Shown one piece after another: positions 24,432 to 47,935 of a stretch of 64,000 nt of DNA. The DNA comes from a phage. The position numbers and the translations under genes are program-made. Location: NCBI GenBank assembly GCA_020241125.1, contig GCA_020241125.1_4708.1; one strand, written 5' to 3'. The stretch's first letter is position 1. Every line of letters starts with the position of its first letter. A model generated the notes under the pieces. The model was not told the origin of the DNA. It did no database searches and saw only the letters and a program-made list of their open reading frames with translations.

Positions 24432-26006
24432 TTACAATTCAAAATCTTCATCGATAACGCGCTGGGTAAGCACTTTGTCGCTGAAGAACTCCACCTTGCG
24501 CTGATGGTATTTACGATGTGCTTCTATCGAAGTACATACCAGATACCAGAACGTTGGTGTCATTCCTTCAAACTTCCCTTTCAGCTGACGTAGCCGTCCC
24601 AACACCTGAATGTTACCGGTTCGTGACCCCATCGCTAACGTCATGAACGTCATCACCAAGTCAGGAAGGTCGATGCCCGTACCTGCCGATTTCACGGTTG
24701 TAACGCTAATATCGTTATCCAACAAGACCATGAAATCTTCTTCAGCAGTATAAGGACCAATCTCTAACTCAGGAATACGTTCACTGAGATAATGCGACAA
24801 CGACTTACACATATCGACGGTTGCACAATACACCAGCATCTTCATACCTTCCTGATACTGGTTCATGAAACCTTTGATTATAACGGTATAGATGAAGTTA
24901 AAGTACGCGAGTTTGAGTTGCTTGTTCTTCATGATAGACTGTTCGAATATCGTGTGAGAATAAGAACCCCCAAAGCCTTTGTATCTGACTTTATCTGTAC
25001 TGCGTAGTCGATACGTCACGGCATTTACCGCAATGTATTTCTTGTATTCGCATTTCGCATAACGTGCTTCTTTCGGATACATCAAATACAACATCCGCTC
25101 GATGAACGGATCGTCGGACACCGCCGTTGCTGACAGATAGATGATTTCCGGAATATTCGCGTAGCACTTCACTTTGAACAAGAAATGCAAAGCTTCGTGA
25201 CATTCGTCATGGATTAACAACCCAATGCCTGTTTTCTCCCAGAACTCGACTGGATGGAAAACATACGGTGCGACACAGTTGTTCTTTTCATAATCGGTTA
25301 TGTATCTCTGAAACATGTTCAGTGAGAATAACGCAATTTTGAAATCCAGCTCACCTTGTTCCACCAACATCTGGAATTCCAGCATGCTGTAACGAGGAAT
25401 GTCGGGATGCGGTGGGTCAGATTGGGCTGTACCGCGTATCTCGATAACATCACCTGGTTCCATACCGAAGAAACTTAGCAACGAGCTGCGCCATCCAGGC
25501 ATGTATCTCGGTGACAGAATAATGCCCGTCCGTACACCACGTCGGAAAGTGATCTCCTGCGACATGGCTGTTTTACCACTGCCCGTGCCTGCGGTGTTTA
25601 GGCTCATTCTGAAGGGGGTATCCTTACCCCCGTCCATGTACTCCAACCATTCTTGCTGATCTTGACGCCATGGAAACTTCCATTTCTTTACGAACTCCAC
25701 TTCTTTACCTGGTACCGGATCGTGATAGACGATTTCCAACCACTCTTTTCGTATCCCTCGAGAAAAGATAAAATCCAAAAACGATTTCAACTGTTCACGG
25801 AGTAAGTATACCTCGCTATAATCGCTTCTTGCCGCGGCATACGTGTTTATGGTATCGGTAACCATTCTCCGTGTACGAGGATCGCGTCGTTTCCTCAGAT
25901 GCAAACAACGGTCTCGAAGGTAATGGCCGATAAGATGGGCAAATCGAAGTCCGTATCCGCTCAGCCTCATGCCGTGCGAGAAGACGTCGATACGAGCTAA
26001 CTTCAT
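24432..26006 (-). CDS. superfamily-2 DExH-box helicase (524 aa)
   Basis: NTAGTGSGKT (Walker A), LLIHDECHE (DExH), LSATAV (SAT), TVKSAGTGIDLPD (motif V), QVLGRLRQ (motif VI). Confidence 0.75.
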   Translation of the reverse strand: MKLARIDVFSHGMRLSGYGLRFAHLIGHYLRDRCLHLRKRRDPRTRRMVTDTINTYAAARSDYSEVYLLREQLKSFLDFIFSRGIRKEWLEIVYHDPVPGKEVEFVKKWKFPWRQDQQEWLEYMDGGKDTPFRMSLNTAGTGSGKTAMSQEITFRRGVRTGIILSPRYMPGWRSSLLSFFGMEPGDVIEIRGTAQSDPPHPDIPRYSMLEFQMLVEQGELDFKIALFSLNMFQRYITDYEKNNCVAPYVFHPVEFWEKTGIGLLIHDECHEALHFLFKVKCYANIPEIIYLSATAVSDDPFIERMLYLMYPKEARYAKCEYKKYIAVNAVTYRLRSTDKVRYKGFGGSYSHTIFEQSIMKNKQLKLAYFNFIYTVIIKGFMNQYQEGMKMLVYCATVDMCKSLSHYLSERIPELEIGPYTAEEDFMVLLDNDISVTTVKSAGTGIDLPDLVMTFMTLAMGSRTGNIQVLGRLRQLKGKFEGMTPTFWYLVCTSIEAHRKYHQRKVEFFSDKVLTQRVIDEDFEL

Positions 26007-28009
26007 AACGTGATTACATCCTCCGGTTTAGGTTCTTTACGCGGTAAAAGCATGTAGTCGATCGGATGATCTGGCTTCATGGTTGGGATATAACTGTTCG
26101 GGTTTTGGAACGCATCCAGTTGCTCTTGGTGAGCGAACTTCATACTCAAGGAGCGCATGTTCATGTTCTTCTTGAAGGTACTGAAGTATCGTGTTGTTCC
26201 CTGTTTCGGCATGCGATAATCTTTCGTGTGTGGCGAACGAATCATGCTGGCGTAGAGAATAACATCGAGATGCGAAAGGTTCATTCGCAGACGCTGGGCA
26301 CACAGACGATGCCAATAATACAGCACGTTTGCAACTTCTTCCGGCGTTGCTTCGTCTTCCGAAAGGAATCCGGCACTGAAAGAACCTTTCCCGAATTTGA
26401 ACTCACGTTCGATTTCTTTTGCGTATTCCATCATGTTTTTGTGGATTAACGGCATCTGGAATAACGTACGTGAATTGTCCCAATGTTTCAAGTCGAAAAT
26501 CACAATCCCGTCAGACGTCACTTCCCAGCTATGGCGTTTTAGATAACGGATAAACGCTTTACTCGGTACAACAGGACGACCGCAGAAATCGAAATTGACT
26601 TTGAGCTTACGATAGCTTTCATCTTTCCTGTCGTAAATCTCCATATCGCAAAGCGTCATGTTAAACAAACGTTGCGGTATCAGCGAACTAATTTCTTCCG
26701 CTTCGGCTACGTCGTACAACATGTTCGCAAGACCTAACTTCATCTTAATCAGCACGTGTTTACCTTTCAGCTCACGTGCGAGTTTGATGTCGTTCATGTT
26801 CTGGCTGTAGCGAAGGATATGTTGATATTCCGGTGGGATTGGTGCTGTGGATACCGTTGACGAACCATCGTGGTGTTTGGTAGAAAGAATGTTCTGCGTT
26901 ACCTGTTGCGAACAGGTACGCGCTGCGCCATCGCCGACATTATCGGTTAGTGCGAAGTTATGACTTAATTCACCGTAACACGTTGTACATACCCCAGCAG
27001 GATCGGGATGATGGCAATAGTTAACGGAGCGCATGCGTACCGTCGTACCAATCAATTCTTTCATGTGTGGTTGTATCGCTACCAACGAACCGTCATCACG
27101 AATAATGAATCGACCATGGAAGCCACGCAGGTCGGTCTCATCACGGATTGGCATCGGGATGGTCTCTTTACTACCACAATCACCAGGATGAAGTCGTTGT
27201 ACAACCGCTGTCGCTATCTGAAGTTCACGACCGAAATATTCAGACTTTTTAATCTGCTCTTTGTTGAACAGCAACGATTTCGCCGCAGAACGACTTTCTT
27301 TCAAGCTGTCGGGAAGAGAGATCAAACCAGCTGCGTACGACCGCATTACTGGATCACGGAATATCTCGGAGTTAATATCAGTCAAGAATCCACGCATCCC
27401 AATACACTGTAGCACCTGCCCAATCGAAACGTGTTCGGTTCTTACCGCACGTGCAATAGGGTTTGCATGTAACGTTTTATCGGTGCTCAGTACCTTGGTC
27501 AGTTTCTTGTATGCGCTTTCGATACCTTCACGGGTGGGTTCCGCTTCGGCGATGATTTTCTTAACTTCGGGGTGTACAGTAATCTGATAAAAATCATCCG
27601 CGCAAATCGTTGTTACGTATTCCTCCAACGCATACGTAAAGAAGTTATACACATTGTTAAACATATCGAACAATGCTTTCCAGAGAACCTCACGATTCTC
27701 TTGTGGGTAAGCATACATGCATTGACGATACGCGGCGCTTTGCAACGCAACCGATGAACCCGCTGTGAACTTGCGTTTATCAACCAGGTTCTCTTTTGTC
27801 AGTGGTGTCTCAGGATACATGCGATGCACAGACCAGTGCATGTAACTAAAGAAAATGCGTCGCGCACGTAATTCATGAACGCCATCGTCCATCTCGATAT
27901 ATACGCGGTCATTAGGCTGTGCCCACTCGAATACCTCATCAACCGGCCAGTGCATAAGCTCGCGTGCCCTCACACGACGTTTCGTGGTGGTCGTCTGTGT
28001 TGTAGTCAT
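26003..28009 (-). CDS. multisubunit RNA polymerase beta'-like subunit, C-terminal module (668 aa)
   Basis: GVCTTCYGELSHNFALTDNVGDGAARTCSQQVTQNILSTKHH resembles the E. coli beta' trigger-loop region CAHCYGRDL...GEPGTQLTMRTFHIGG. Confidence 0.6.
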   Translation of the reverse strand: MTTTQTTTTKRRVRARELMHWPVDEVFEWAQPNDRVYIEMDDGVHELRARRIFFSYMHWSVHRMYPETPLTKENLVDKRKFTAGSSVALQSAAYRQCMYAYPQENREVLWKALFDMFNNVYNFFTYALEEYVTTICADDFYQITVHPEVKKIIAEAEPTREGIESAYKKLTKVLSTDKTLHANPIARAVRTEHVSIGQVLQCIGMRGFLTDINSEIFRDPVMRSYAAGLISLPDSLKESRSAAKSLLFNKEQIKKSEYFGRELQIATAVVQRLHPGDCGSKETIPMPIRDETDLRGFHGRFIIRDDGSLVAIQPHMKELIGTTVRMRSVNYCHHPDPAGVCTTCYGELSHNFALTDNVGDGAARTCSQQVTQNILSTKHHDGSSTVSTAPIPPEYQHILRYSQNMNDIKLARELKGKHVLIKMKLGLANMLYDVAEAEEISSLIPQRLFNMTLCDMEIYDRKDESYRKLKVNFDFCGRPVVPSKAFIRYLKRHSWEVTSDGIVIFDLKHWDNSRTLFQMPLIHKNMMEYAKEIEREFKFGKGSFSAGFLSEDEATPEEVANVLYYWHRLCAQRLRMNLSHLDVILYASMIRSPHTKDYRMPKQGTTRYFSTFKKNMNMRSLSMKFAHQEQLDAFQNPNSYIPTMKPDHPIDYMLLPRKEPKPEDVITL

Positions 28010-28154
28010 TATTGCTTTCCGATTTAAATGGTTTTATCATACGGTTTACCAAATCCGTTGGACTTTACTATCGTTGTGATAGCATCGGGAATCCCTTCCC
28101 TTAGGTTATGTAGGTGTTAATATATCTCCACTGCTGACCTTTATGTCGGCAGCA

Positions 28155-28640
28155 TTATCCAGCTTTCTGTTGTAAAGCGTATGGATCCATAGCGTCAGAC
28201 ATATCCGCAAAAACGGTGAGAATAAACCCCTTTATCTGTCTCACCTCGGTTACACGAAGCCCTTTATCATTACGATATACGTTTTCTTCACCGACTAACT
28301 TTGGTCGAATAACATAAACCCCATCAACAAACGGGAATGTCGGATACGGATAAATACCAATACGAATGATGTTTGGGTGATCGCCTAGAAGGTCACGCCC
28401 AAACTTATCGACTCGACCATAAATCGTTCCATCCACACCTTCCACTTCAATGAGATCATTTCGAATATCCTGAAATAGCTGCTCTAACGTGTCGGCGGGG
28501 TACGTATATGCGACGCCTAACGCTGGATCCTCAATGGTTTTGACACTGAATCCGTTAAGCCAAACAATCTGTTCATCCGCCCATGTTTCTTCATATACCG
28601 TTAATCCATCGCCGTATATGTTGGCGTGTGCTATCTCCAT
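28155..28640 (-). CDS. hypothetical protein (161 aa)
   Basis: ORF track. Confidence 0.5.
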   Translation of the reverse strand: MEIAHANIYGDGLTVYEETWADEQIVWLNGFSVKTIEDPALGVAYTYPADTLEQLFQDIRNDLIEVEGVDGTIYGRVDKFGRDLLGDHPNIIRIGIYPYPTFPFVDGVYVIRPKLVGEENVYRNDKGLRVTEVRQIKGFILTVFADMSDAMDPYALQQKAG

Positions 28641-28753
28641 AATCTCATTTCCTCTTATACGTTAGGATAGATGACATGTTGGATATACGTTGCCTTTGCA
28701 TATATTGCTTTATTTCCGTCAGAAATAACGGAAAATAAAAACAACGACATAGT

Positions 28754-28784
28754 TCCCTCCCACCTCCACATGGGAGAGGGAGGG
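28754..28784 (-). terminator. hairpin (CCCTCCC...GGGAGGG) followed by U-run in minus sense
   Basis: After stop of 28798..29160. Confidence 0.5.
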
Positions 28785-28797
28785 CTATTCGTGTTTA

Positions 28798-29160
28798 TTA
28801 CTCTATGCTGTCTTCTTCAACACAATCCTCTTCGGAACCGTCGAACGTTTTCTGCACTGCAGTGGTATCCCAGTTGGCAGCGTAATCAGCCATCGCTTCG
28901 CGCAGCGCTTCTTCACCGGCATCACCAGCCAGGTCAAGCACAACCAAACCTTGCGCGACGTTTTGAGCAACTGTATCAATAACGGTTGCATCTTCTTCAA
29001 AACTACGTACCGGTTCAATGGTGCCTACATCAACAGCATAGTTCGTGGTCGCTGTAAGCACGGCGACTTGTAGCGCATCGCTATCTTCATCATGCAATGC
29101 TGCTTCAATACCGATTGGACGGGCAAGTTCTTGCAGTGTTAATTTGCGAATTAAGTTCAT
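28798..29160 (-). CDS. hypothetical acidic protein (120 aa)
   Basis: ORF track. Confidence 0.5.
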   Translation of the reverse strand: MNLIRKLTLQELARPIGIEAALHDEDSDALQVAVLTATTNYAVDVGTIEPVRSFEEDATVIDTVAQNVAQGLVVLDLAGDAGEEALREAMADYAANWDTTAVQKTFDGSEEDCVEEDSIE

Positions 29161-29183
29161 TATGTTTTTTCCTCAGGTGAATG

Positions 29184-29534
29184 TTAGCAATCGTTTAAAA
29201 CTTTTTCGATACGATGGTTGACGAGTTCATTGAACGATTCTTCAACTTGTTCAATAATTTCATCAACGTCGATATCTAATTGTTGGGGTTGGATAACATG
29301 CTCTTTCATAGTTTCTAGCCAGTATTCGGCTTTAACCATAACGTTAGCTACTTGTTCGACCTGGCTGCGTATGTCGACGATCTGGCAGTCAGGATTTTTA
29401 ATATCGATGATGTGTCCGTGGTGGTTGATAAAACCTAGCTTATTTGATGCCCTTACCGCATCGCGGGTAAGTTCTTGCAAGATTAAATTATTAACGTAGT
29501 TCACTGCTACGGAACGATTTTCGTTATCACTCAT
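29184..29534 (-). CDS. hypothetical protein (~116 aa; start moved to internal ATG with AAAGAGGA RBS)
   Basis: Track ORF 29184..29612 would run into the terminator hairpin. Confidence 0.45.
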   Translation of the reverse strand: MSDNENRSVAVNYVNNLILQELTRDAVRASNKLGFINHHGHIIDIKNPDCQIVDIRSQVEQVANVMVKAEYWLETMKEHVIQPQQLDIDVDEIIEQVEESFNELVNHRIEKVLNDC

Positions 29535-29612
29535 ACCAGGGATCCTCTTTAAGTCATCACATTCTAGTGTTAAGCAGTTAAAATAAACCGTTCCTTTTAT
29601 CAGCATAAACAT

Positions 29613-29641
29613 CCTCCTCCCACCACATGGGCAGGAGGAGG
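29613..29641 (-). terminator. hairpin (CCTCCTCCC/GGAGGAGG) with UUUAUGCUG tail in minus sense
   Basis: After stop of 29653..30063. Confidence 0.5.
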
Positions 29642-29652
29642 CGTAATATGCA

Positions 29653-30063
29653 TCAGAAAGGAGGACGATCTTTAAATTCTAGCAACGTGTCTTCGAAGCA
29701 AGCGATAAGTTCAGACCGCAATTCGGTACGGCCTTGTTCACCGAAGAGTTCCAGCAACATTAACCCCCGAGCGGTCTTCGTAGCAACCTCTTCGCAGATG
29801 CGGAGATCGCGAACTTCATCATCGCCGACATCTTTACGTAACTGCGCTGCAATGGGCTTAAGATTACCGTTTTCATCGTGTTCGTCACGAAATGCATCAT
29901 AAGCCGCATCGATGTTCGCGATCCGTGTCAACCCTTCAGAATCCCGCCAGTCTCGATATAATCCAAGCAGACGGTTATGATTCTTCGTTTTGACGTTCGG
30001 TGCTGGAAGGTTGCGCAACAGATGTGGTGTAATCATTGCTATCACGCTATCCGAATGATCCAT
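29653..30063 (-). CDS. hypothetical protein (136 aa)
   Basis: ORF track. Confidence 0.5.
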   Translation of the reverse strand: MDHSDSVIAMITPHLLRNLPAPNVKTKNHNRLLGLYRDWRDSEGLTRIANIDAAYDAFRDEHDENGNLKPIAAQLRKDVGDDEVRDLRICEEVATKTARGLMLLELFGEQGRTELRSELIACFEDTLLEFKDRPPF

Positions 30064-30074
30064 CGTATACCTCG

Positions 30075-32243
30075 TTAGCTTTCACAGTCATCTGCGTCGA
30101 TGATTTGTCCGCCAGCAACGTTCAGTTGATGATACAGAATCCTCAACGCACGGTTACCGCCAATGGGATACTTCTCGAAGTTGGTCGCAATAGGAATCGC
30201 TGATGGCTTATCGGTCGCATAGATACTCTCAGTGATGCTATCCACCTGTTTTGGATTGTTCGCATAGTCCATAAAGACGCTCGCGAACCATCCGCCAGCA
30301 AAGGCGGTAACTTCACGATGTTCAGATTCACCGCAGTAACGAGTCGGTTGCTCTTTACCAGGAGAACTGTATTTATCGCTATTACTGAGTTTCGACGGTA
30401 ATCCATGCGCTTGCAGTTTAGGGATGCCCACCGCTGACCAGTCGTTCGCCGTCTTCTCCAACATCATGATGTACGTGTCACCGATCGCAATATCGTTCTT
30501 GGTTGTCCGCCATTGCCCAGAACGTCCACGATACCGTACAGGACCTTTCTTCAACGGGAACTCACGAATCAGATTCTCCATACGTTCTGAACCTGCTGCG
30601 ATACTGTCCGTCGGGATATAAACTTCCGTACCATGGCGTTGTACGTACCGTAAATGATCCCATTTATCCTCATCCGTGATACAGTATTTTTCAACAACCT
30701 GTTCCACGAATTCAGGACTGACGATATAGTAGTAGCGCATCAGTGTGTTCCAAGCGGTCTCCAGATCGCCTGCATCCATCACCGGTTTCAGTTCACGCAT
30801 GATCTGATCACCAACACCGTTGATGTACGGTGCGTTAACACGACTTAAACTCATCCTTTTGATTACCGTACTATCGTCGAACATGAAGTCCGCAACGTTA
30901 CCCCATTGGTCGACCGGCATTTCATCGTCTTCCATGATGTCGGTTACGACGAATTTATCACCCGCCATACCGGTGAATTTAAACCCGATACCTGGAACAA
31001 CGTCGTACGTGTATGTGATGGTCACACGCCAATCATCGAGATTCTCTTTACGGTAATCGCGGGTCGGTAACACATGACGTAGCTGTCCGTTAGGATTGCG
31101 GATATCAATACCGTGTTCAGCATCAGCCAGGTTCAACCACCACATCACCGTTTGATGATGACGTATCGGCGTACCAACGCGTTCACGTTCGTACTTACGA
31201 ACAGCATCCTGAATTCGGGTGTAAAGCAAACCAATCGCGTTCTCGTATTTCAGGAATTGACGATACGGAGGACGCATCTTCTCTTCCATCATAATCGCAC
31301 GCTCGCGGGCTTGACGTCCAGAACGACGATGTCGGTCGCTGACAACATCGATATCCGTTACACGCGCATTCGGTTCCGCGTAAGTGAGATCATCGTAAAC
31401 ATAATCCACACGCTGAAGGTTACACGTCATCATGTCAACAACGCTGAGGATAGGATCGATTTCGCGTGTTGCTGCAAGTAACCCATCCTTACGAATACGC
31501 TCACCGTTCTCGGGTATTGCTTGATATACCTCATCATCACCGTAGAGATTGATTGGGTATCGTGATTTACCTGATGTGATCGTCCGCTTCTCAATGCCGG
31601 TACTGGTGAAATGCTTCAATACACCACGACGGGCAACACCACCATCCTCGATACACTGATAGAAGCTACCGAAACACACTTTGCAATCGCGACCGTAACC
31701 CCACTCGCGCGTTTCTTGATTGATCGCTGGACTTTCCATCAAACGAGAATATCGCGGTACGATCTGGCCTCGACGAAGGGAATGGAACAAGTTGGTTGGT
31801 CGAAAACGGAAACCGTACTGCTGATGCATGATGTGATGCTCGGGCACTTCAAGCAAGCGTAGCTCGTGACGGTTACCATCCTCTTGGTTTTCATACAGCA
31901 CGTAATGCATCGTGTTTGTTTTGATGCTGTTTGCTGTATGCCCAGGTTGGAAACGTGGGATGATATCTATGATGCGAGATTCAACTGGAAACTCTACTGA
32001 CCAAGTGTTCTGTCCGTACTGGTATTCAATCCCCGTCGTTAGTCGGGACGGTTTCGCATCTTTGATAACCAACGCTTGGCTAAGATGTCCACCAAACATC
32101 GCAGCGCGCTGTGCTGAGTTATAATGCAATAGCCCGTTAAGTCCAGTCCCTACGCCAGTATACTCCTGTTTAATGGGAATGATTTTACCTTCAGCGATTG
32201 CCTGCTTCACAGATTCATAAAGAGGTTTTTCTTTATAATGCAT
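30075..32243 (-). CDS. multisubunit RNA polymerase beta-like subunit, C-terminal module (~722 aa)
   Basis: Ordered matches to bacterial beta: NSAQRAAMFGG (cf NMQRQAVP), YGQNTWSVEF (cf GQNMRVAFMPW), MAGDKFVVTDIMEDDEMPV (cf GDKMAGRHGNKG...EDMPY), GESEHREVTAFAGG (cf GEMEVWALEAYGA). Start moved to internal ATG (MHYKEKP) with AGGAAG RBS. Confidence 0.6.
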   Translation of the reverse strand: MHYKEKPLYESVKQAIAEGKIIPIKQEYTGVGTGLNGLLHYNSAQRAAMFGGHLSQALVIKDAKPSRLTTGIEYQYGQNTWSVEFPVESRIIDIIPRFQPGHTANSIKTNTMHYVLYENQEDGNRHELRLLEVPEHHIMHQQYGFRFRPTNLFHSLRRGQIVPRYSRLMESPAINQETREWGYGRDCKVCFGSFYQCIEDGGVARRGVLKHFTSTGIEKRTITSGKSRYPINLYGDDEVYQAIPENGERIRKDGLLAATREIDPILSVVDMMTCNLQRVDYVYDDLTYAEPNARVTDIDVVSDRHRRSGRQARERAIMMEEKMRPPYRQFLKYENAIGLLYTRIQDAVRKYERERVGTPIRHHQTVMWWLNLADAEHGIDIRNPNGQLRHVLPTRDYRKENLDDWRVTITYTYDVVPGIGFKFTGMAGDKFVVTDIMEDDEMPVDQWGNVADFMFDDSTVIKRMSLSRVNAPYINGVGDQIMRELKPVMDAGDLETAWNTLMRYYYIVSPEFVEQVVEKYCITDEDKWDHLRYVQRHGTEVYIPTDSIAAGSERMENLIREFPLKKGPVRYRGRSGQWRTTKNDIAIGDTYIMMLEKTANDWSAVGIPKLQAHGLPSKLSNSDKYSSPGKEQPTRYCGESEHREVTAFAGGWFASVFMDYANNPKQVDSITESIYATDKPSAIPIATNFEKYPIGGNRALRILYHQLNVAGGQIIDADDCES

Positions 32244-32274
32244 AGGACTTCCTATTATCGAATTGAGGTACGTC

Positions 32275-32628
32275 ATGTCTAACACGCCCCTGAACGACTT
32301 TCTTAAGACAAACCCCGATGACCTCATCCACGATCTTGATTTCAGGAACGTTGTTGAGATGCATCTGGAATATTTCAAAAATGCCGGACTGGTCTCTACG
32401 ATAGACATACCACCCGAACGCGCCTACGAATTCGATGGTAACTTTTATGGATTGTGTCGTGTTCTGCTTGGCGAGGGCAGTGAACCAATGCACTGGATAA
32501 CCATGAGACTCAATGGTTATCGTGACCCTACGGAATACACCGCCGATGTTCTAACCATGAAGATTGTCGATACAAGCGCAATCAACACATTAAAACAACA
32601 GTACCGCACAATCCACTACAGCGCTTAA
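32275..32628 (+). CDS. hypothetical protein (117 aa)
   Basis: Plus-strand ORF with GAGGT RBS and a terminator right after its stop. Confidence 0.45.
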   Translation: MSNTPLNDFLKTNPDDLIHDLDFRNVVEMHLEYFKNAGLVSTIDIPPERAYEFDGNFYGLCRVLLGEGSEPMHWITMRLNGYRDPTEYTADVLTMKIVDTSAINTLKQQYRTIHYSA

Positions 32629-32633
32629 GATAA

Positions 32634-32662
32634 CCCTCCCACAGCGTAAAGCGTAGGGAGGG
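32634..32662. terminator. hairpin CCCTCCC...GGGAGGG between convergent genes
   Basis: Lies between stops of 32275..32628 (+) and 32694..33974 (-). Confidence 0.5.
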
Positions 32663-32693
32663 CATTTATACCGTCGTTCGATGACTTAATACA

Positions 32694-33974
32694 TCAGAAA
32701 CGATTTACAGTACGTCCTGTCCACGCGCTCAGGATGTTGTTACGTTCCATCTCAGCACGACGACGTAAACCGTTTGGCGACTGCGGTGCTGGCGGCATCC
32801 CCCATCCAGCAGGTTGCATGCCCATGCCTGGCCAAGCAGCATTATTGAACATCGTACCGTTACGTTCCGCAACACGGTTCATCAACGCATCAAACGTGCT
32901 ATTACCTGCCGGTTGGTTACCACCACTTTCCCACTGATTAGGTTGGACAGGTGCGGTTTTACCTAACAGGTTATCGATCACACTGCCTGTTGAAGCAGGA
33001 CGCGGTTGCATACCTTCATGTGCAGCTGCTGATGGATTTGGCTTAACCGTCGGCTGCGGACGACTGTTCAGCGTTACACCCATGTTGTATTTCGCTGGCG
33101 GAATCTGACCACGATGTTGATTGATCGGTTCAAAATCCTCAACCCAAGTAACATCACAGTAGCCGTTCTCTTTACCGTCGTACTTATCACCAAACAGTTT
33201 GATGAGATTGTTCAGCGGTTCCATCAGCTTAGCGAAGCTGTGGATAAGACAATCGAAATACGGAGCATGAGGATCGCTTGACCCAGCGTTGTACGTTTCA
33301 CTTACCTCACCCGCGTGCGGGATAACGTACTCAACCAGGTTTCTCAGCATGTTAAGATCTTTCTTGGAAATCTCAACACCACACCAATACGTTTTCTTAT
33401 CTTTCGTGCTGATATGTTCTTCTTCCATGAACGGGAAAGTAACGACCGCAACGCGGGTCATCTTCTTACCCATGTAGGTTGCGCCGGTACGACGAAGATA
33501 AATTTTGGACAGCGTATACGGTGTGTCGCGTTTCAGCCAAACGGTGACCAGTTTACCCAGGGTCGTTAATGTTTTATCGCTGGCGTCCGCAAGGATGTTG
33601 AAGAACTCTTTTTGCTTCGGTCCGAAACGTTTTGCTTCTTTAGGATTGATTGCGGTTTCAACCATCCAAATCAGCATGGAGCATAGCGTGGCGTTAAAAC
33701 GAACAACCATCGCACGACGCAGGAACTGAAGTACTTCCGATTCGCCGTTCATCACGTCTTCACTTAGCGGATGGAACAGCACACGTTCAGCCAGCTGATT
33801 TCCGGTACGAACTTCAGAAACCGGCATCAGCAACGGCATGCTTTCCACGGTAGCGGCAACTGCAACAACTTTACCATCCCCATCCGTAAAACGATATTCT
33901 AATTCGTGGGCGTCATTCTCAAAATAGTTAACGCTCTGTAGTGCTTTGCGATAAGCTTCGATAAGCTTCGACAT
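32694..33974 (-). CDS. hypothetical protein (426 aa) with Gly/Pro/Gln/Met-rich low-complexity C-terminal tail
   Basis: C-terminal ~110 aa: GMQPRPASTG...GMGMQPAGWGMPPAPQSPNG. Confidence 0.55.
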   Translation of the reverse strand: MSKLIEAYRKALQSVNYFENDAHELEYRFTDGDGKVVAVAATVESMPLLMPVSEVRTGNQLAERVLFHPLSEDVMNGESEVLQFLRRAMVVRFNATLCSMLIWMVETAINPKEAKRFGPKQKEFFNILADASDKTLTTLGKLVTVWLKRDTPYTLSKIYLRRTGATYMGKKMTRVAVVTFPFMEEEHISTKDKKTYWCGVEISKKDLNMLRNLVEYVIPHAGEVSETYNAGSSDPHAPYFDCLIHSFAKLMEPLNNLIKLFGDKYDGKENGYCDVTWVEDFEPINQHRGQIPPAKYNMGVTLNSRPQPTVKPNPSAAAHEGMQPRPASTGSVIDNLLGKTAPVQPNQWESGGNQPAGNSTFDALMNRVAERNGTMFNNAAWPGMGMQPAGWGMPPAPQSPNGLRRRAEMERNNILSAWTGRTVNRF

Positions 33975-34029
33975 ATTGTATTTCCTTTTCTTTACGTCAA
34001 CGGTCCCCCTACAACAGGGGACCTATGGA

Positions 34030-35616
34030 TTAGAAGTTGCCTTTGGTAGTTACCGCATCCACCAGGTTAAACAAATCAACGCTCAGCTTATACACCTCCT
34101 GCTGGCTACGGTTGAGCAGCGGGCTGTATGCGGATGGGTTGATGTTCGGCATGGTGTACGGAATCGGTGCAGAGCCGTCAACGCTGATCTTGAACTGGCT
34201 GTCCAGGAACAGGTTAATCGCGCCGCTCACCATAACCGCATTCGGGTTGTTACCCAACATGGAGGGTAGGATATTGGTAATCATGTCAGAACGCATTTGT
34301 TCAGCAGCACGGTTACAATCGTATCCTTTAATGAACGGTACAGCGTCGGTAACCGCAACCGCCCACTGACCAGGCATGATACCGAGTTCTGGGTGACCAT
34401 GGTTGTCAGCAATGAAACGGAACGACTCCAACATGCGATACGTCATCGCAGCAGGCATCATTGCAGCAAGCGATGAGCAATACAGCGTTGGATAATCGAT
34501 CACGTCCCAGCTCTGGCTGTCGGTCGGCATCCAACCAAACTCGGTGGTTGCTGATGTACCACGACGAGCTTCCACATACGGGAATAACGTTAAGACGTCA
34601 CGGATATGTTCACCGAACATCCGTTTCATGTCAGCCCAACTCAGGCTACCGCTGAAAGCGAACCCTTCATCACGCATAATCGCACCGAATACCGGATGTG
34701 CAACCAGCGGTTCTTCACGAACAGCTTGAGCGGCTTCTACGTAAATATCCTCGTTCTCTGCGCTACCTGGATGAGACCCGCTTTCGTACGTCTGACGAAT
34801 AGCGCCAACATTATCGAAGGCTTTTCTCAGATAGATGGTTGGGATGTTCGTATCAGCACTAGCGGGTTTGATTTTCTCTGTTGCGAAACACATTGCTGCT
34901 TCCACACCACGGAAAACCGGTTCCGGTTGCGGTGGGTAGGATGTACGATGAACCACATCAGCGTAGGCTGGATCGAACTGTTGCATCACGTTCTGCATGG
35001 CTGGGTCCATGAACTGGTTATCAAAACCACCATTACCTACCCAACGTGCTGTTGATGCATAGGTCAGCGTATCCTGAACACGAGTACTGAACTGAACATC
35101 ACGATTAACGGGGTCGTATGCGCCGGTCAACAGGTTCGTTGCGTCCATCGGGGTTGCACGAACAATTTGCTTACCGAACATGTCCGTTGTGGTTGTTTCG
35201 GTTACCTGGATTACGTTCGTGAAGAAGAACACCAGTTCGTTCGGCAGATCGATAGCGCGCGTTGTAAACGCATCGAGGCTTACAGAATGGTCGGTGTATC
35301 CAGAAATGTAATGGACACGCTTGGTTCCTGGTGCGAGGGCCAAGGATTCTTCTACCGCCATCATGAAATGGAAACGACGTGTGCCCCAACCATTCGCAAT
35401 CTCCGAAACCCCCTCAGGTTCTGCAGACTGCTGCAACAAACCGGTTGCAAGCTTATTGATTGCTGATGGTGTTGTTGCCGTACCGAACCGCGTCGTGTTA
35501 ATGAAGTCTTCGATGCTACGCATGCTATCTGCGTGGAATCGTAGTGGACGACGTTGTACGTTGTTATACGGTGCGGTTTCAACCATCAGTATTTCACGAA
35601 CATTCATCGGGATCAT
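34030..35616 (-). CDS. hypothetical protein (528 aa)
   Basis: Long ORF; 2-nt gap to upstream gene suggests co-transcription. Confidence 0.55.
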   Translation of the reverse strand: MIPMNVREILMVETAPYNNVQRRPLRFHADSMRSIEDFINTTRFGTATTPSAINKLATGLLQQSAEPEGVSEIANGWGTRRFHFMMAVEESLALAPGTKRVHYISGYTDHSVSLDAFTTRAIDLPNELVFFFTNVIQVTETTTTDMFGKQIVRATPMDATNLLTGAYDPVNRDVQFSTRVQDTLTYASTARWVGNGGFDNQFMDPAMQNVMQQFDPAYADVVHRTSYPPQPEPVFRGVEAAMCFATEKIKPASADTNIPTIYLRKAFDNVGAIRQTYESGSHPGSAENEDIYVEAAQAVREEPLVAHPVFGAIMRDEGFAFSGSLSWADMKRMFGEHIRDVLTLFPYVEARRGTSATTEFGWMPTDSQSWDVIDYPTLYCSSLAAMMPAAMTYRMLESFRFIADNHGHPELGIMPGQWAVAVTDAVPFIKGYDCNRAAEQMRSDMITNILPSMLGNNPNAVMVSGAINLFLDSQFKISVDGSAPIPYTMPNINPSAYSPLLNRSQQEVYKLSVDLFNLVDAVTTKGNF

Positions 35617-35617
35617 T

Positions 35618-37204
35618 TTATTTTTTTCCTCTTAAATTTACTACGTGTTCATTTAATCGAACAACTAATTGCACAAGCTGCTGACGGATATCTGCTGGAC
35701 AAAGCATCAATCCTTTACGGTCAGCTGGGACTTTCTCAAGGATTTCCGGGCCTGCTGCTGAAACATCCCAGTCCCATTCACAAAACGCATCGGCCACCAT
35801 GTTAATACCGACAACCGGTAAAGTTGTACGTTCATCTTCATACATGGCGTGTGGATACAATTTATTGACAGTAATGATCTCCTGTGGTTTTAATTGGTGG
35901 ATAATCTGATAAACATCGTCGCGTTTGACCTGGATACCTACGGTCAGCGCGGCCAGTTGAGGAAAACCCCAATGGTCTAACAAACAAGCTGCGATCGCTA
36001 ACGCTTTTGCCTGATGCACGGCTTCAATCGGTGCCAGACTTCTCGCCGGAAGATGGCTATCAAGCAACCATTGCGCCAGTGCTCGGCATCCGCGGTTAAT
36101 TGGTTTTAACTCAACGGTGTCATCGTGTTTAGCGTACGTGTATCCGTCGTAACGTTTTGCGATACGCGCATACATGTCTTCAACTTTACCGTAAGGTGCC
36201 GTTTCGTCGACGTCGTGCAACACACGTTCCATCTGGGTAAGATACGCAATGTCGAGAATGAGTACACGTGGTGAACGTTTATCTTTCACCATCAACGCAT
36301 CAATCACGCCTTGACTGTCTTCATCTTGCGCATTCCCTCGCGGCGTTTTCTCGCGAATCGGTCCGCTGAAACGTCGTTCCGTACAAAGGTTATTCACATA
36401 GCTGAAGATCAGTGTTACTAGATGCGTACAACTCACTAACACCCCATCTTTAACGACAGGCTGTACAGCTTGGTCCAAGTCGCGTACGGCGAGACGGCGG
36501 ACGATGGCTTGTGAACGCAACCAGCCGGGCACTTTCTCCGTCGACATGTAATCCACGGTCATCGACAGCGTGATCTTTTTATCACCCGTCTGTGCGCGGA
36601 TATAGTCTTCCAGTCGGTCGTAAGCGGCGATATCATGAATGCGTGTTTTATACATCAACGACATAGCCACTTCTTCTTTACGAACCGTTCCGTACGTTTT
36701 CCCTGCGTCAATCAGAAACTCTGCCCAAATCGGCACCATCAGACGGACGTAGATCGCTAACGCCGTTAACTCAACGTAATCATTTCGTAAATAGGTTTTC
36801 TCAGGTATGTCATCCTCACCTAATGTTGTTTTCATGTCCGGTGGTAATTTTACCCAACCTGGGGTATTACACAATGCCAGAATCTCTTCGTACACAACCG
36901 GTTTGTAAATTTCACCAACAGCGCGACTCAACTCCTCCATTTGTTGTTGTGGAGCAATGTAGTTATCCATCGCTTCACGTGCTTTAACGAACCCTTCGAA
37001 GATGTCGTCAATTCGACGTGGGTTCTTTTGTTCTATCCAGGCGAGATACTTGTTAATCTCCCGCATCTGATTGCTAGCCATATCCCCATCAATCTTGATG
37101 TAACCCTGACCTGAAAATTCCACAGTACGTCCATCACGGTGTTTGATGAGATAGTGATCCAGCTTTTCTTTTCCTTGCGTCGTAATGACGGGCACTATGT
37201 GCAT
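35618..37204 (-). CDS. hypothetical protein (~528 aa; start at internal ATG with AAGAGG RBS)
   Basis: Track ORF extends to 37339, but the promoter-like motif and RBS support the ATG at 37204 (MHIVPVITTQ). Confidence 0.55.
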   Translation of the reverse strand: MHIVPVITTQGKEKLDHYLIKHRDGRTVEFSGQGYIKIDGDMASNQMREINKYLAWIEQKNPRRIDDIFEGFVKAREAMDNYIAPQQQMEELSRAVGEIYKPVVYEEILALCNTPGWVKLPPDMKTTLGEDDIPEKTYLRNDYVELTALAIYVRLMVPIWAEFLIDAGKTYGTVRKEEVAMSLMYKTRIHDIAAYDRLEDYIRAQTGDKKITLSMTVDYMSTEKVPGWLRSQAIVRRLAVRDLDQAVQPVVKDGVLVSCTHLVTLIFSYVNNLCTERRFSGPIREKTPRGNAQDEDSQGVIDALMVKDKRSPRVLILDIAYLTQMERVLHDVDETAPYGKVEDMYARIAKRYDGYTYAKHDDTVELKPINRGCRALAQWLLDSHLPARSLAPIEAVHQAKALAIAACLLDHWGFPQLAALTVGIQVKRDDVYQIIHQLKPQEIITVNKLYPHAMYEDERTTLPVVGINMVADAFCEWDWDVSAAGPEILEKVPADRKGLMLCPADIRQQLVQLVVRLNEHVVNLRGKK

Positions 37205-37257
37205 AACAACCTCTTTTCGCGGTTCCCTGTTAAAACGTCTTCTGTGACGTCTACCAC

Positions 37258-37280
37258 AAAGGTAATATAAGCGTGAATAA
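37258..37280 (-). promoter_or_regulatory. conserved promoter-like motif, copy 2 (minus sense TTATTCACGCTTATATTACCTTT)
   Basis: TATATTAC core ~58 nt upstream of ATG 37204. Confidence 0.5.
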
Positions 37281-37408
37281 TTTTGGATTCCGGCTGAGTT
37301 ATCGCTCAGCATGCAAGGCATCCCGCCGAAGCGAGACACCTTGCACTAACGGAAAATATTCGCGTTACCTTCTGAATCGAGGACTCAGAATGCGATGCTA
37401 AAGCATGA

Positions 37409-38200
37409 TTAGAACGCTAAGCCATCAAAGGCTACGGACGGATCATCGTCGTCATTTGCGCTTGGCGCATCCCAACGGGTATCAGGGGCCGCTGAAGCCG
37501 AACTTGATGCGTTAGAGTTACCGTTGTACTGGCCGTTACCAGCATTACGGTTACCGCCGCCGTTGTTATTGTTACGGTTATAGCTATTGTTGCCACCATT
37601 ACTTACGCTACGGCTTTCACCGTCGAAATTGGTTGCGAGGATGCTCGGCAACACTGCGCGATGAATACGTACAAATTCCAACGCACAAAGCGGAGAAACA
37701 ACCCCGATCTGTAAAGGTTGCCCAGACTCATCAACCAGAGCGTGGAAACGCGGTGGCTTGAATACGAATTGGATGTTCGGTTTTTGGTACGCGGTTACAG
37801 CGATATATACCGAACCATCATCGTTCTTACCAACCCATGTTGTACTTTCGGTAATCTGTTTCTTCTTACCTGGATTATTGCGATCGTCGATAACCTTTTC
37901 GTTCTTCATCGCAAAACGTTGGCCTGGCTTACCCTTAGCAACCTGCTCGAGGATCGCAAGCAGGTTATAGAACGCGTATGAACTCATGCGTGCCCAAATG
38001 CTTTCGGCGCGACCCTGCTGGTCTTTACGACCTGTATAAACCGTGATGCGCGGTTGATTCTTAGCAACGCTAATTTTCAATGAGGGGATTGAATTACCGC
38101 CCTCAACCTTTTCGTCCGCCCACAGTTTCCAGTTGTTGTCGTCATACGCTGTAGGAATAATGTTTCCTTGTGGTTTACTGCCCGAATTCCAATTGCTCAT
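37409..38200 (-). CDS. putative single-stranded DNA-binding protein (SSB-like architecture, 263 aa)
   Basis: Folded N-terminal ~200 aa, Gly/Asn-rich linker (SNGGNNSYNRNNNNGGGNRNAGNGQYNGNSN), acidic tip ANDDDDPSVAFDGLAF, as in bacterial SSB (DDDIPF). Confidence 0.4.
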   Translation of the reverse strand: MSNWNSGSKPQGNIIPTAYDDNNWKLWADEKVEGGNSIPSLKISVAKNQPRITVYTGRKDQQGRAESIWARMSSYAFYNLLAILEQVAKGKPGQRFAMKNEKVIDDRNNPGKKKQITESTTWVGKNDDGSVYIAVTAYQKPNIQFVFKPPRFHALVDESGQPLQIGVVSPLCALEFVRIHRAVLPSILATNFDGESRSVSNGGNNSYNRNNNNGGGNRNAGNGQYNGNSNASSSASAAPDTRWDAPSANDDDDPSVAFDGLAF

Positions 38201-38273
38201 TTTCAGCCTCGTTACGTAGTGTGAATCAATTTCTGGTTCAGATGATAGTCAATATTAGTTAAAAATTACAGCC

Positions 38274-39071: not shown

Positions 39072-39090
39072 ACCCCACAACTCCTTCTTA

Positions 39091-44103: not shown

Positions 44104-44346
44104 TTAGCAATGGTTGTTAGTTGCTTCTATTTCGTCAAGATAAGGTTCTACGTCATCGCCCTCCACGAATTCGTTGAACCAACAGTCAATAGTGGAAATA
44201 ACCGGTGACTGGTGTTCACATTTCTTAGATACCTTAAAAGGTACGTTATTATCCATCATGCCGAGTTCGGGTCGAAAACGCCCGAAATGTTTCGCAGTCC
44301 AAATGTCTGGGACGATATGGTTGTTCATTGCGTCGCCGTCAAAGTC
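44104..44346 (-). CDS. RNA polymerase beta'-like N-terminal subunit, exon 2 (begins at the DFDGD catalytic motif)
   Basis: Reading frame opens 3 codons upstream (UGA) and encodes DFDGDAMNNH...; cf bacterial beta' NADFDGDQMAVH. No RBS; joins exon 1 to give GYNA|DFDGD. Confidence 0.6.
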   Translation of the reverse strand, partial: DFDGDAMNNHIVPDIWTAKHFGRFRPELGMMDNNVPFKVSKKCEHQSPVISTIDCWFNEFVEGDDVEPYLDEIEATNNHC

Positions 44347-44696
44347 CACATATCTTCAGTATGAATCGCTACTTCATACCCGCAGCATTACCTGCAGCTC
44401 CTGGTGTTACCAGGACGGAGAGATCATCTCATCACCCACGAAGGGTGTTCCGCGCTACCCTCAGCGAATTCGAGGGACATGATCGTTGAACCTTCCACCG
44501 ATAATCGGTGGCTAGGCTGCTGATTAAACATTGTACGTTGGGGTGGCATCCTGGTTCAGGACTGTCGTTGAAGCCTCCCAACATCCACTCACTTATTTCC
44601 GCCTTATCGGCTCCCATAAGGGCAGAGTGGCTTTAGCCCGTCTCAGCAATTCACGGAATTCAAGCTCTTCCTTTCAGAAGGCAGGGCCTCATCTGA
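44347..44696 (-). other. putative self-splicing intron (group I-like, 350 nt, no ORF) interrupting the beta' gene
   Basis: Exon 1 frame ends ...KGYNA and exon 2 starts DFDGD, restoring the YNADFDGD motif; 5' exon ends in U and insert ends in G; insert carries GGUUCAACGAUCAUGUC and AAGAUAU near its 3' end (resembling group I R and S elements) and several stem-loops (CCUGGUAACACCAGG). Confidence 0.55.
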
Positions 44697-45947
44697 AGCA
44701 TTGTATCCCTTAAGGATCATCACGCTTAACCCGATGGTATTATCCTGCGGATCGCGTTTAACCTTGGTGATTTCAAGACATTGGTTACTGCTTCGGTCAA
44801 GTGATGGGTTTCGAACAAAACCGCACACAATCCCATCGAACGGTGTATCAGCAATAAGCTCATCGTGCAGCTCACTCATCATCGGATGATAATTACGGAC
44901 ATGTTCCGCAACGAACGCACGTGCTGCTCTCGGTGAATAACCACGATGGAATAACTTGGATTGGATATGTTCTTTATTGGTTAAAGTAAATGGTGCGTAT
45001 GGGAAATGCAGATGATAATAACGATGGTTCGCTGTTATCGAACTGATTACAGTACGCGTGGTGAATGGATGTAATGTACCTAATATGTTTTTACGTGTGA
45101 TACCTTTCTTCTTACCGATGAACTCATCGAAAATCGCCGCATGGTATTGCAGTAGCTTCAATTGCACTTTCGCCATCCAGTTTTCTTTCTTTCTGGCGCT
45201 CAAAGGTGTTGTTGGGTGATAGATACTATTCAACGTACCGATAGCATCGATCGCACCTTCCATTTTGCTATCCGCATAACGACCGGTTGGCGTATTCTCG
45301 ATAACGAACATCATGGCCGCAGGAAAGCTGATATACTGACTGAAGAACTTATCACGATGGATACGGATGAATTCTCGTAGCGTATCAACTTTCTCCGTGT
45401 TCTTCGGTCCGCGTAACGTCGGTCCTTTATACAAGATCTCCATGATGCGATCGAAGTTCTGTATAAAACTATTTACACCGCGACGTATCCCGAATACATC
45501 GAATTGCTGCTCCAGATAGTTCTTGAGTTCGATGGGTCGTTTTACATTTGGACGGTAACTGGCATCAATGAGCCACGTCATCGTTTCAAAGCTTTTGATA
45601 TTCAACTCGCTTGCCAGCACGAGATGGACCAACGGGTTAATGAACGCATCAATTCCTTCAGGAACACGCGCCCAAACCGTCGAACGAATCTCTTGTTCTG
45701 CTGGATAGGTTACAACCGTTTTACAGTTCGGACACACCGTGCCGAGCAGCTCACCACGATTGTAGAAACCACAACCACATTGTGGCGTGATATCCAACGT
45801 ATCGCTGGAGTAAACACGGGTGATAAAACTGTTTAATTTCTTCTTCTCTTCGACGACTTTTGTATCGTAATCATTCAACAAAATCGGCGTGAAAGGAAGT
45901 TCTGCGAGCTGTCTATCGAAACTCACGATATCGAGCATGATGGCCAT
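44697..45947 (-). CDS. RNA polymerase beta'-like N-terminal subunit, exon 1 (417 aa to the GYNA junction)
   Basis: N-terminal zinc finger CGCGFYNRGELLGTVCPNCKTVV (cf beta' CxC...CxxC); TAGGAG RBS; unspliced frame continues 17 codons to a stop. Confidence 0.65.
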
Positions 45948-46039: not shown

Positions 46040-47935
46040 TTAGAACAGGTTGAATGCCCCACCCATGTTGTTAACGCCAACATTCGGACGATCGCTACGT
46101 GCGTAGATGTTACCGGAGATGTTACCCAGACCACGAGCACGTGCTGCCATGTTACCACGAACAGCGGTACCTGCCAGATGCTGGATGTTCTCAGGACGGA
46201 TGGTGAAGCCAGCATCAGCAGCGGCCTCGATCAGCGCCTGCAGTGCTAACGGATCGAAGTCGTAACGCATTGCCCAGCCGGTTTGTTCCCAGCTACCAGA
46301 CAGAACACGATCAATGATTTCGTGACGAGCGACAACACGCTGAGACATCGTCATATCGGTACGGTCGAAGCTGTCTTCCCAAGCTTCTACGGTATCCGGG
46401 TTAGTGATGTTCATCATGTACAGATCGTCCATATCACGAATATCGTGACGGTGACCATCCTGGTGGTTATAATGACCCAGCGGGATACGGTTACCGGTAG
46501 CGTAGACCAGTGGTGCGCCGTACTGATATTTCTTGCTGAAGCAACCCAGGGTAGTATCATCGAAGGCACGGAAGAGTGCTTTGTAACCTTCGGAGATTTC
46601 CCGGACTTCACCTTCAACTTTGCCCGTATAGATCTTCTCAGCCGCCGGGATCATACGCAGCAGCCAGCTGTATTCGCCTTCTTCCGGTACGTCGATAGAA
46701 ATCAGCAGAGACGGATACAGTACCTGTTGCAGGAACTTGTAAATCTGCTCGTTGGTTTGAGTAGACAGATCCAGCGGTGCGGTAACTTCCGGATCCAGTA
46801 CCATCGCCAGAGCACCCGGGTTATGCGGACCAATACCACGAGCAGCGTTGCTGATTAAAGACTGTGCCCACGCCATACCGCTGTTCAGCGTAGCGATGGT
46901 GCCAATCAGACCCAACACGAAAGTGTTCGGCGTGAACGCATCCAGCTCCAGCGGGTAAGCGCTGGTCATCACGTAACGCGGTTGGTATTGTACAGTCGGC
47001 GGTACCGGATAACCGTTAACCAGAACAGGGCCTTGGTTGAAGGTCGGGTTCTGCGGGCTGTAGGTCAGGTCAATGTAACCGGTGGTTGCGACCAGACGCT
47101 GCTGACTATCGTAATCGCTCATCGCTTGACGGATGCGGTTAGAGATAGTTACAGTGATGTCAGAACGCACAGGGTTACCAACAATATCGCTGTCCTGCAT
47201 ACCGCTGGTGTTGTACTGAACGCTGCTGATTGGCTGATCGCTTGCCATCATGCCCAGGTTGAACTGCGGCAGACCCAGTTTATCGCCGAGACGGATTTCG
47301 ATCGCGGTTTGGATTGCGTTATCTGCAGCAGACAGCAGGGTGGTTGCCAGATGCGCAGATTCAGCGGTGATTTCATTGGTCACCACAGCCAGACCAGCGA
47401 TACGAGCAGTACCATTAGACTTACCACCGATAGCTGCATACATTGCCGCCATGACTTCGTTGATGAACGTACCGTTCAGGTTATCAACCCAGGTACGCGG
47501 CACCAGAATGTTACCATGCGGGCCTTGTTCTTCACGACGCGGCAGCGGAGCCAAACCGGCAACCAGTGGAAGCACATAACCGAAGAAGTGGTTATGGTCA
47601 CCAACTTTTGCACCGCTCATAACAACCAGGGTCGGATACGGTACACTGTATTGGTTAGGATCGACGGTCACCATGATGAAGTCGTCTTTGAATCCTTTAT
47701 CTTCCAGTTCTTTTTCCATCAGACGACGGAGATTCAGTACCTGCTCGGAGCCAGTATTACGGCTAATACGACGGCTCAGTGTACGGTTGATCGTACGCAT
47801 CGTATGAGTTACTTTAGGCTGGCCAGCAAAATCTGCAGCGGTTTCCAGCGCCTCATCAGCACGTTGTGCGGTGCGGGTTTCAGCTGCACGAATTTCTACA
47901 TTATCGTTACCGTTATTACGTACGTCTAAGCCCAT
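46040..47935 (-). CDS. chmA: candidate chimallin / phage-nucleus shell protein (631 aa); major capsid protein not excluded
   Basis: Large ORF with strongly optimal codon usage, AAGAGGAA RBS, promoter-like motif 70 nt upstream, directly upstream of the beta'-N gene (order as recalled for phiKZ gp54-gp55), ~8 kb from PhuZ. No motif confirmation possible by eye. Confidence 0.45.
   Translation of the reverse strand: MGLDVRNNGNDNVEIRAAETRTAQRADEALETAADFAGQPKVTHTMRTINRTLSRRISRNTGSEQVLNLRRLMEKELEDKGFKDDFIMVTVDPNQYSVPYPTLVVMSGAKVGDHNHFFGYVLPLVAGLAPLPRREEQGPHGNILVPRTWVDNLNGTFINEVMAAMYAAIGGKSNGTARIAGLAVVTNEITAESAHLATTLLSAADNAIQTAIEIRLGDKLGLPQFNLGMMASDQPISSVQYNTSGMQDSDIVGNPVRSDITVTISNRIRQAMSDYDSQQRLVATTGYIDLTYSPQNPTFNQGPVLVNGYPVPPTVQYQPRYVMTSAYPLELDAFTPNTFVLGLIGTIATLNSGMAWAQSLISNAARGIGPHNPGALAMVLDPEVTAPLDLSTQTNEQIYKFLQQVLYPSLLISIDVPEEGEYSWLLRMIPAAEKIYTGKVEGEVREISEGYKALFRAFDDTTLGCFSKKYQYGAPLVYATGNRIPLGHYNHQDGHRHDIRDMDDLYMMNITNPDTVEAWEDSFDRTDMTMSQRVVARHEIIDRVLSGSWEQTGWAMRYDFDPLALQALIEAAADAGFTIRPENIQHLAGTAVRGNMAARARGLGNISGNIYARSDRPNVGVNNMGGAFNLF

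Follow-up and report, generated by a model that had tools for sequence, protein, structure and literature searches.

We analyzed 64,000 nucleotides (nt) of phage DNA (GCA_020241125.1, contig GCA_020241125.1_4708.1) that carries the genes of a multisubunit RNA polymerase in separate pieces. This whole stretch is called the window, and coordinates are window positions unless another genome is named. We conclude with high confidence that the window holds a gene block of a Goslar-like chimallivirus in which four of the five non-virion RNA polymerase (nvRNAP) subunits are encoded, that the N-terminal half of β (β-N) would be encoded elsewhere in the genome, and that the mRNA for the N-terminal half of β' (β'-N) would have to lose a group I intron. 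The polymerase genes themselves are the already known nvRNAP block of Goslar-type phages and are ordinary for the family. The exception is that the catalytic subunit gene is split, inside its active-site motif, by a predicted self-splicing intron, and the intron content of β'-N is the sole feature that might be new. A first-pass annotation of this DNA, which had recognized the fragmented polymerase, was partly supported by our analysis; it had overlooked the intron in the catalytic motif.

Four nvRNAP subunits are encoded in a Goslar-like gene block

Judged from its sequence, the source of the window is a Goslar-like member of the Chimalliviridae, a nucleus-forming jumbo phage of E. coli. We make this assignment because over 26003-32408 the DNA has 96.8% identity with that of Escherichia phage vB_EcoM_Goslar (Goslar), its sole match in the phage collection, because Goslar 125464-188963 is colinear with the window apart from a few indels, and because the window contains an open reading frame (ORF) for chimallin. 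The polymerase proteins of the window are 99.8-100% identical to their Goslar counterparts. All of the large ORFs between 24 and 48 kb are on the minus strand.

The first-pass annotation had read the ORFs at 30075-32243 and 26003-28009 as the C-terminal part of β (β-C) and the trigger-loop part of β' (β'-C), and had attributed them to a fragmented multisubunit polymerase of the kind found in phiKZ-like phages (Chimalliviridae). Matches to PHROGs and to structures in the PDB and direct comparison with phiKZ bear out both the identities and the architecture (Table 1). The β-C product (722 amino acids) is 100% identical to Goslar gp171 and matches PDB 7ogp_C (E = 6e-86), and its residues 420-601 align with residues 1063-1241 of E. 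coli β. The reading frame extends over 30075-32408; in the Goslar annotation, gp171 begins at the start that corresponds to 32243. The β'-C product (668 amino acids) is 99.85% identical to Goslar gp165 and matches PDB 7ogp_D (PHIKZ074) over residues 11-654 (E = 1.3e-86); bacterial β' aligns weakly (1e-4) with residues 192-416, the bridge-helix and trigger-loop half. Failure of these products to align with bacterial polymerase subunits had been named in the annotation as evidence against it, and regions of both bacterial β and bacterial β' were found to align. The conserved lysine motif of β-C, GFKFTGMAGDKF, aligns with phiKZ ...GAFKMTDFHG, and GFKFTGMAGDKF...MPVDQWGN is unbroken where phiKZ has its gp72 intron. 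In the phiKZ β-C gene (L002 13275-16595) this HNH-carrying intron is located exactly at the lysine motif (...GAFKMTDFHG↓...MPIDENGN; here and below the arrow marks a splice site).

The annotation had also held that neither the enzyme to which each piece belongs nor the position of β-N could be decided. Both can now be resolved. The phiKZ nvRNAP consists of gp55, gp68, gp71-73, gp74 and gp123. The DFDGD motif is found in gp55 and the bridge and trigger helices in gp74, and promoter binding requires gp68, a sigma-like subunit (PMC8287921). We used tblastn to compare phiKZ proteins with the window, and found that gp54, 55, 56.1, 65, 66, 67, 68, 69, 70, 71, 73, 74 and 75 matched in strictly colinear order. 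The polymerase genes are located inside a block that runs from the chimallin gene (chmA) to a helicase gene and is colinear with phiKZ gp54-gp75.

Virion and non-virion enzymes are both split β/β' polymerases that the PHROG names fail to separate, and the 668-amino-acid protein has a weak secondary match to phrog_2962 (3e-10). These observations would be compatible with some or all of the pieces being homologues of the virion-packaged subunits (phiKZ gp80, gp149, gp178 and gp180). However, tblastn with these four phiKZ proteins gave no match in the window at E ≤ 1e-3, and blastp of the window polymerase proteins against the same four and the Goslar virion subunits (gp078, gp196, gp205 and gp207) gave none at E ≤ 1; across these comparisons, no virion subunit of either phage matched the window with E of 0.5 or below. 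The non-virion subunits, in contrast, matched at 1e-40 to 1e-95 (tblastn and blastp). The comparison with phiKZ subunits of both kinds that the annotation had recommended thus returned non-virion matches only. In Goslar, the virion polymerase genes map to 88 kb, 207-215 kb and 229 kb, none of them within the part that is colinear with the window; the virion subunits, as well as β-N, were all detected in the Goslar genome. The sequence data already contradict a virion assignment, which we regard as extremely improbable. Because the matches are solely to the non-virion set and the gene order is that of phiKZ gp54-gp75, we assign all of the polymerase pieces in the window (β'-N, the gp68-like subunit, β-C and β'-C) to the non-virion enzyme.

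Two 528-amino-acid ORFs within 34030-37204 had been proposed as candidates for β-N. Their size is near that of phiKZ gp123 (543 amino acids) and they are placed between polymerase genes, but their matches identify them as other proteins. The product of 35618-37204 aligns full length with phiKZ gp68 (query 68-563 on chain residues 20-517 of 7ogp_B, E = 5.6e-28; blastp 1e-32), the sigma-like fifth subunit. The product of 34030-35616 has the same sequence as Goslar gp174, the nuclear protein importer PicA (PMC11087766). It aligns full length with phiKZ gp69 (blastp 6e-15) and had no match in the PDB. Neither phiKZ gp123 nor Goslar gp039 matches these ORFs, whereas gp123 finds gp039 (Goslar 39951-41621) with E = 4e-53. 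The sequence evidence already refutes a β-N identity for this pair, and there is hardly any chance that it is correct. With gp123 and gp039 as β-N queries, there was no significant match anywhere in the 64-kb window (best E = 0.12). Goslar gp039 adjoins the major capsid gene, an arrangement shared by gp123 of phiKZ, and is approximately 84 kb past the left end of the window. By comparison with these genomes, β-N of the window's phage would be encoded elsewhere, beside the major capsid gene.

Table 1. Polymerase genes, the predicted intron and flanking genes of the conserved block
Feature	Coordinates	Strand	Basis
nvRNAP β'-N exon 1 (417 codons; zinc finger; ends ...ILKGYNA)	44697..45947	-	phrog_2987, E 4.1e-115 (ORF 44643-45947)
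Predicted group I intron Ia (350 nt, without an endonuclease ORF; resembles subgroup IA; between NA and DFDGD codons)	44347..44696	-	junction, fold, phiKZ homology
nvRNAP β'-N exon 2 (DFDGDAMNNH... to stop codon 44104-44106)	44104..44346	-	matches phiKZ gp56.1, Goslar gp185
nvRNAP fifth subunit (orthologous to phiKZ gp68 and Goslar gp175; sigma-like, binds promoters)	35618..37204	-	PDB 7ogp_B/9rjs_B PHIKZ068 ~5e-28; phrog_3209
PicA/Imp1 nuclear protein import factor (phiKZ gp69 / Goslar gp174); not polymerase	34030..35616	-	100% identical to Goslar gp174
nvRNAP β-C (phiKZ gp71-73 / Goslar gp171 orthologue), uninterrupted	30075..32243	-	phrog_3295, E 2e-180
nvRNAP β'-C (orthologous to phiKZ gp74 and Goslar gp165; half with bridge helix and trigger loop)	26003..28009	-	phrog_3015, E 4.7e-170
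Chimallin (ChmA), nuclear shell protein; upstream end of block	46040..47935	-	Pfam PF25677, E 2.7e-26; phrog_4795; 98.7% identical to Goslar ChmA
SF2 helicase (phiKZ gp75 / Goslar gp164); downstream end of block	24432..26006	-	tblastn phiKZ gp75, 5e-49; phrog_16

The β'-N gene is interrupted within its catalytic motif

The annotation had placed β'-N, with its zinc finger and DFDGD motif, at 44104-45947, 12-18 kb from the other pieces. The identity and the distances stand (11.9 kb from 32243 to 44104 and 16.1 kb from 28009 to 44104), but this span is not one ORF. The 1844 nt of 44104-45947 contain no continuous frame. The ORF that begins at 45947 stops at 44643, and DFDGD (GAC TTT GAC GGC GAC, 44346-44332) is in another frame, downstream of an insert of 350 nt. 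Comparison with Goslar and phiKZ fixes the junction as ...GGA TAC AAT GCT ↓ 350 nt ↓ GAC TTT GAC..., and exon 2 opens at 44346 with GACUUUGAC. Exon 1 is 100% identical to residues 1-417 of Goslar gp247, and the tblastn alignment with exon 1 of phiKZ gp55 stops exactly at 44697.

Joining the exons gives a protein of 497 amino acids with zinc-finger cysteines (CGC...CPNC) at residues 57-75 and NADFDGD at 416-422. This protein matches PDB 7ogp_A (phiKZ gp55/gp56.1) at 1e-74, with no gap through LKGYNADFDGDAMNNH. The phiKZ gp55 gene is interrupted one codon upstream of the window site (CCT AAT ↓ ... ↓ GCT GAT TTT GAC). The DFDGD motif of phiKZ gp55 is published as residues 417-421 (PMC8287921), and removal of the phiKZ intron is implied because this numbering fits only the spliced product.

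The β'-N mRNA of the window's phage would first have to lose the 350 nt that separate the codons for NA from those for DFDGD in the Mg2+-binding loop. An unspliced message would give a protein that ends 17 codons into the intron and lacks the catalytic aspartates. We infer that self-splicing is a precondition for an active β'-N.

The break could instead be a pseudogenizing insertion or an assembly artefact, with a product that is non-functional or made as two polypeptides. Splicing in the window's phage is predicted from sequence, the insert is not recognized by Rfam (see below), and in the Goslar RefSeq record exon 2 is entered as a hypothetical protein of its own, gp185. Against this, the insert is present and conserved in four independent assemblies (L012, L014, L016 and L019), its helices covary, and it has a homologue in the phiKZ intron, removal of which is implied by the published gp55 structure. 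Its boundaries (after U at the 5' end, after G at the 3' end) restore the universal NADFDGD in frame, and there is no plausible start within exon 2 from which it could be translated independently with DFDGD still joined to its β-barrel. We therefore consider a defective or artefactual gene very unlikely and favor a spliced β'-N.

In the Goslar RefSeq record (NC_048170 167622-170910; L001 38098-41386), β'-N is present as two coding sequences: gp247, labelled "RNA polymerase beta subunit", and gp185, labelled "hypothetical protein". Just the first intron is annotated there; a 13-nt exon and a second intron of 355 nt (Ic, described below) are unannotated.

The 350-nt insert has the predicted structure of a group I intron

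The splice sites of the insert are ...AAUGCU↓UCAG...AUGUG↓GACUUU, so that the 5' site follows a U and the intron ends with a G. For P1, a 5-bp hairpin is predicted (GCU↓UC-AGAU-GAGGC), with a U.G pair at the splice site. RNAalifold, applied to five homologous copies, gave the layout of a group I intron: P2, P3, P4, an extended P5, P6, P8 and three hairpins for P9, and, like subgroup IA, one hairpin that lies between P7 and P3'. When the P7 pseudoknot was added, 97.7% of the cells were paired, and 31 of the 96 pairs had compensatory changes, compared to 1-2 in slid controls; this covariation sample comprises 5 sequences from 2-3 lineages. P7 covaries at three of its six pairs (GAUCAU/AUGAUC in the window, GAAUAC/GUAUUC in Goslar Ic and GACUAU/AUAGUC in phiKZ). 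The structure counts refer to the Ia/Ic subset only, because the P4'/P7 elements of the phiKZ and I0 introns were misplaced when these were added to the MAFFT alignment. The minimum free energy of the intron has a z-score of -3.1.

Homology was searched for with an nhmmer profile of the window intron and its closest relatives. The profile found the phiKZ gp55 intron (2e-16), which itself scores 75.6 bits on Rfam RF00028, as well as the phiKZ gp71/73 (1e-11) and gp178/179 introns and an intron in the virion polymerase of Goslar; it found no second copy in the window. On this evidence the insert is a group I intron that lacks an endonuclease gene, and we refer to it as Ia. Another pairing, between the 3' end of the intron and the P7/P3 junction (CAUGUC/GAUAUG in the window, CGUGGU/ACCACG in Goslar), was considered as P7 and dropped, because the true P7 is upstream (GAUCAU/AUGAUC) and because the pairing, by reading the alignment, is lost in L012.

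Several points weigh against our interpretation as a whole. Pfam detected nothing above its cut-off in the polymerase proteins, with just Rpb2_6 at 0.0056; Pfam is nearly blind here, and the subunits were identified by PHROGs, PDB sequence search and direct comparison with phiKZ. Because β-N is outside the window, the complete enzyme is deduced solely from the near-identical Goslar genome. At gathering scores Rfam gave no match anywhere in the window, and a search of 43900-44900 at E ≤ 10 returned no group I intron. The predicted P1 uses just 3 exon nucleotides and, taken alone, is statistically indistinguishable. Finally, expression, splicing, enzyme assembly and absence from the virion are all predictions.

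Intron sites differ among Goslar-like genomes

We compared the intron content of β'-N in 12 Goslar-like genomes; scans of IMG/VR and metagenomes had given ten further loci besides Goslar's own IMG/VR copy. The compared loci include 44347-44696 (minus strand) of the window, L011 5257-7064, L012 5252-5976, L013 5244-6365 and L020. Within approximately 31 nt that encode GYNADFDGDAM, there are four group I intron sites (I0, Ia, Ib and Ic), occupied in five configurations among the 12 genomes. Ia alone is present in the window, in L014 (at 97.5% the nearest to the window among 11 related contigs) and in L019, and at least Ia is present in L016, which is truncated on the 3' side. L012 has Ia and Ic, and Goslar has Ib, with an HNH gene, and Ic. 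Five genomes (L013, L015, L017, L018 and L021) have I0, Ib without an endonuclease and Ic, separated by two 13-nt exons. L020 has I0 only, with a long ORF of its own that presumably encodes an endonuclease. There was no intron-free allele among these 12 genomes. Other chimalliviruses are mostly uninterrupted here, with 159 of 236 records covering a 216-amino-acid query that spans the motif in one piece.

Goslar Ib (1440 nt; labelled Intron_gpI in RefSeq) is in the Phe codon and carries the HNH gene gp186. It is followed by a 13-nt exon, CGACGGTGACGCT, and then by the 355-nt Ic before ATGAAC. Ic is approximately 72% identical to the window's Ia, and both introns follow GCU with the same short guide sequence. 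We considered and rejected the possibility that Ia and Goslar Ic (~72-80% similar) are one intron that had slid by 18 nt: the two are paralogues at two sites, because L012 holds both in tandem. In L012 (5602-5620; IMGVR_UViG_3300011560_000001), Ic appears to follow a C (GAT GCC↓AGAG...) instead of the usual U; splicing after GAU would otherwise delete the Ala codon that follows DFDGD.

One tentative explanation, which we think is more doubtful than probable, is that the motif is a battleground of at least four intron sites, in which Ia and Ic would have spread by reverse splicing and not by endonuclease homing, and in which the allele with only Ia may, during co-infection, be immune to or compete with its HNH-carrying relatives. 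Spread by reverse splicing would fit because Ia and Ic both follow GCU and share the guide sequence. An analogy for a competing allele is offered by PhiPA3 gp210, an intron endonuclease from the mobile group I introns in chimallivirus RNA polymerase genes (PMC11620839). We found no description of a four-site cluster with 13-nt exons in the literature searched, the coverage of which was incomplete.

Other genes in and around the block

The clustering of chmA, nvRNAP subunit genes and genes for nucleus-associated proteins, including ChmC, is conserved and has been published (10.1101/2023.09.22.559000). Two such genes are interleaved with the polymerase genes on the minus strand of the window. 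The gene at 37409-38200 corresponds, by position and match, to Goslar gp176/phiKZ gp67, the RNA-binding protein ChmC, and that at 32694-33974 encodes a nucleus-associated protein (phiKZ gp70 / PhiPA3 gp64). Between β-C and β'-C, at 28155-30063 (minus strand), there are four ORFs of 120-161 amino acids and a short one (Goslar gp166-gp170); the four had no PHROG or Pfam match. These five small ORFs are extra relative to phiKZ, in which gp73 and gp74, the counterparts of the flanking genes, directly adjoin.

A few segments of the window differ from Goslar. There is no megablast match in Goslar for approximately 8510-9404, an insertion or replacement relative to Goslar, where a 327-amino-acid ORF (8510-9493, minus strand) has a DUF7448 domain (1.4e-23) and matches phrog_2650. 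The segments 1-660, 5545-5940 and 22156-23029 are also without a match. The last of these falls in the C-terminal part of a gene for a leucine-rich-repeat protein of the BspA family (Goslar gp161), and this location suggests that the product may be a variable surface or host-range protein.

Comparison with known systems

Goslar (NC_048170) has the same genes in the same order (gp165, gp171, gp175 and gp247 plus gp185). The window differs in lacking Ib and Ic and in having a single endonuclease-free intron of 350 nt, 5 nt upstream of the first Goslar site. The phiKZ nvRNAP (PDB 7OGP/7OGR/8QUE/9RJS) is likewise a split β/β' enzyme of five subunits, including a sigma-like fifth subunit, and its β'-N gene has a homologous group I intron at NADFDGD. 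The window proteins, however, are only 24-31% identical to those of phiKZ. In addition, the phiKZ β'-N intron (N↓A) carries the HNH gene gp56, whereas the window intron is without an endonuclease, and the phiKZ β-C gene is split by an intron (gp72), whereas that of the window is not.

The nvRNAP of Bacillus phage AR9 (PDB 7S00/7S01) is also a split β/β' jumbo-phage polymerase and was the second-best PDB match for β'-N, β-C and β'-C. The AR9 matches are far more distant, with E values of 1e-13 to 1e-17 and partial coverage. To our knowledge, AR9 has no chimallin gene. Self-splicing group I introns, some with an HNH endonuclease and some without, are also known to interrupt essential phage genes where they encode conserved catalytic residues, as in chimallivirus polymerase genes (PhiPA3 gp210, PMC11620839) and in orf142 of phage Twort. 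The latter is a multi-intron phage gene; the window copy is without an endonuclease.

Implications

A split RNA polymerase is a hallmark of nucleus-forming jumbo phages, for which Goslar is an established model. By analogy with phiKZ, the nvRNAP genes of the window's phage would be transcribed early by the injected virion polymerase, and the five polypeptides would assemble into a β/β'-type enzyme without α or ω. The assembled enzyme would be imported into the phage nucleus, where it would transcribe genes of the middle and late classes with no need of the host polymerase.

The value of re-examining this DNA is that the pieces are all assigned to the non-virion enzyme, that the former β-N candidates are reassigned to a sigma-like subunit and PicA, and that the catalytic gene is predicted to need splicing. 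Splicing of β'-N matters for annotation, since in RefSeq the Goslar gene is divided between gp247 and gp185, the latter listed as "hypothetical". If the hotspot proves to be undescribed, it would be a natural system for studying how several ribozymes splice across 13-nt exons, and for studying how endonuclease-bearing introns compete with endonuclease-free ones when phages co-infect a cell but replicate in separate nuclei.

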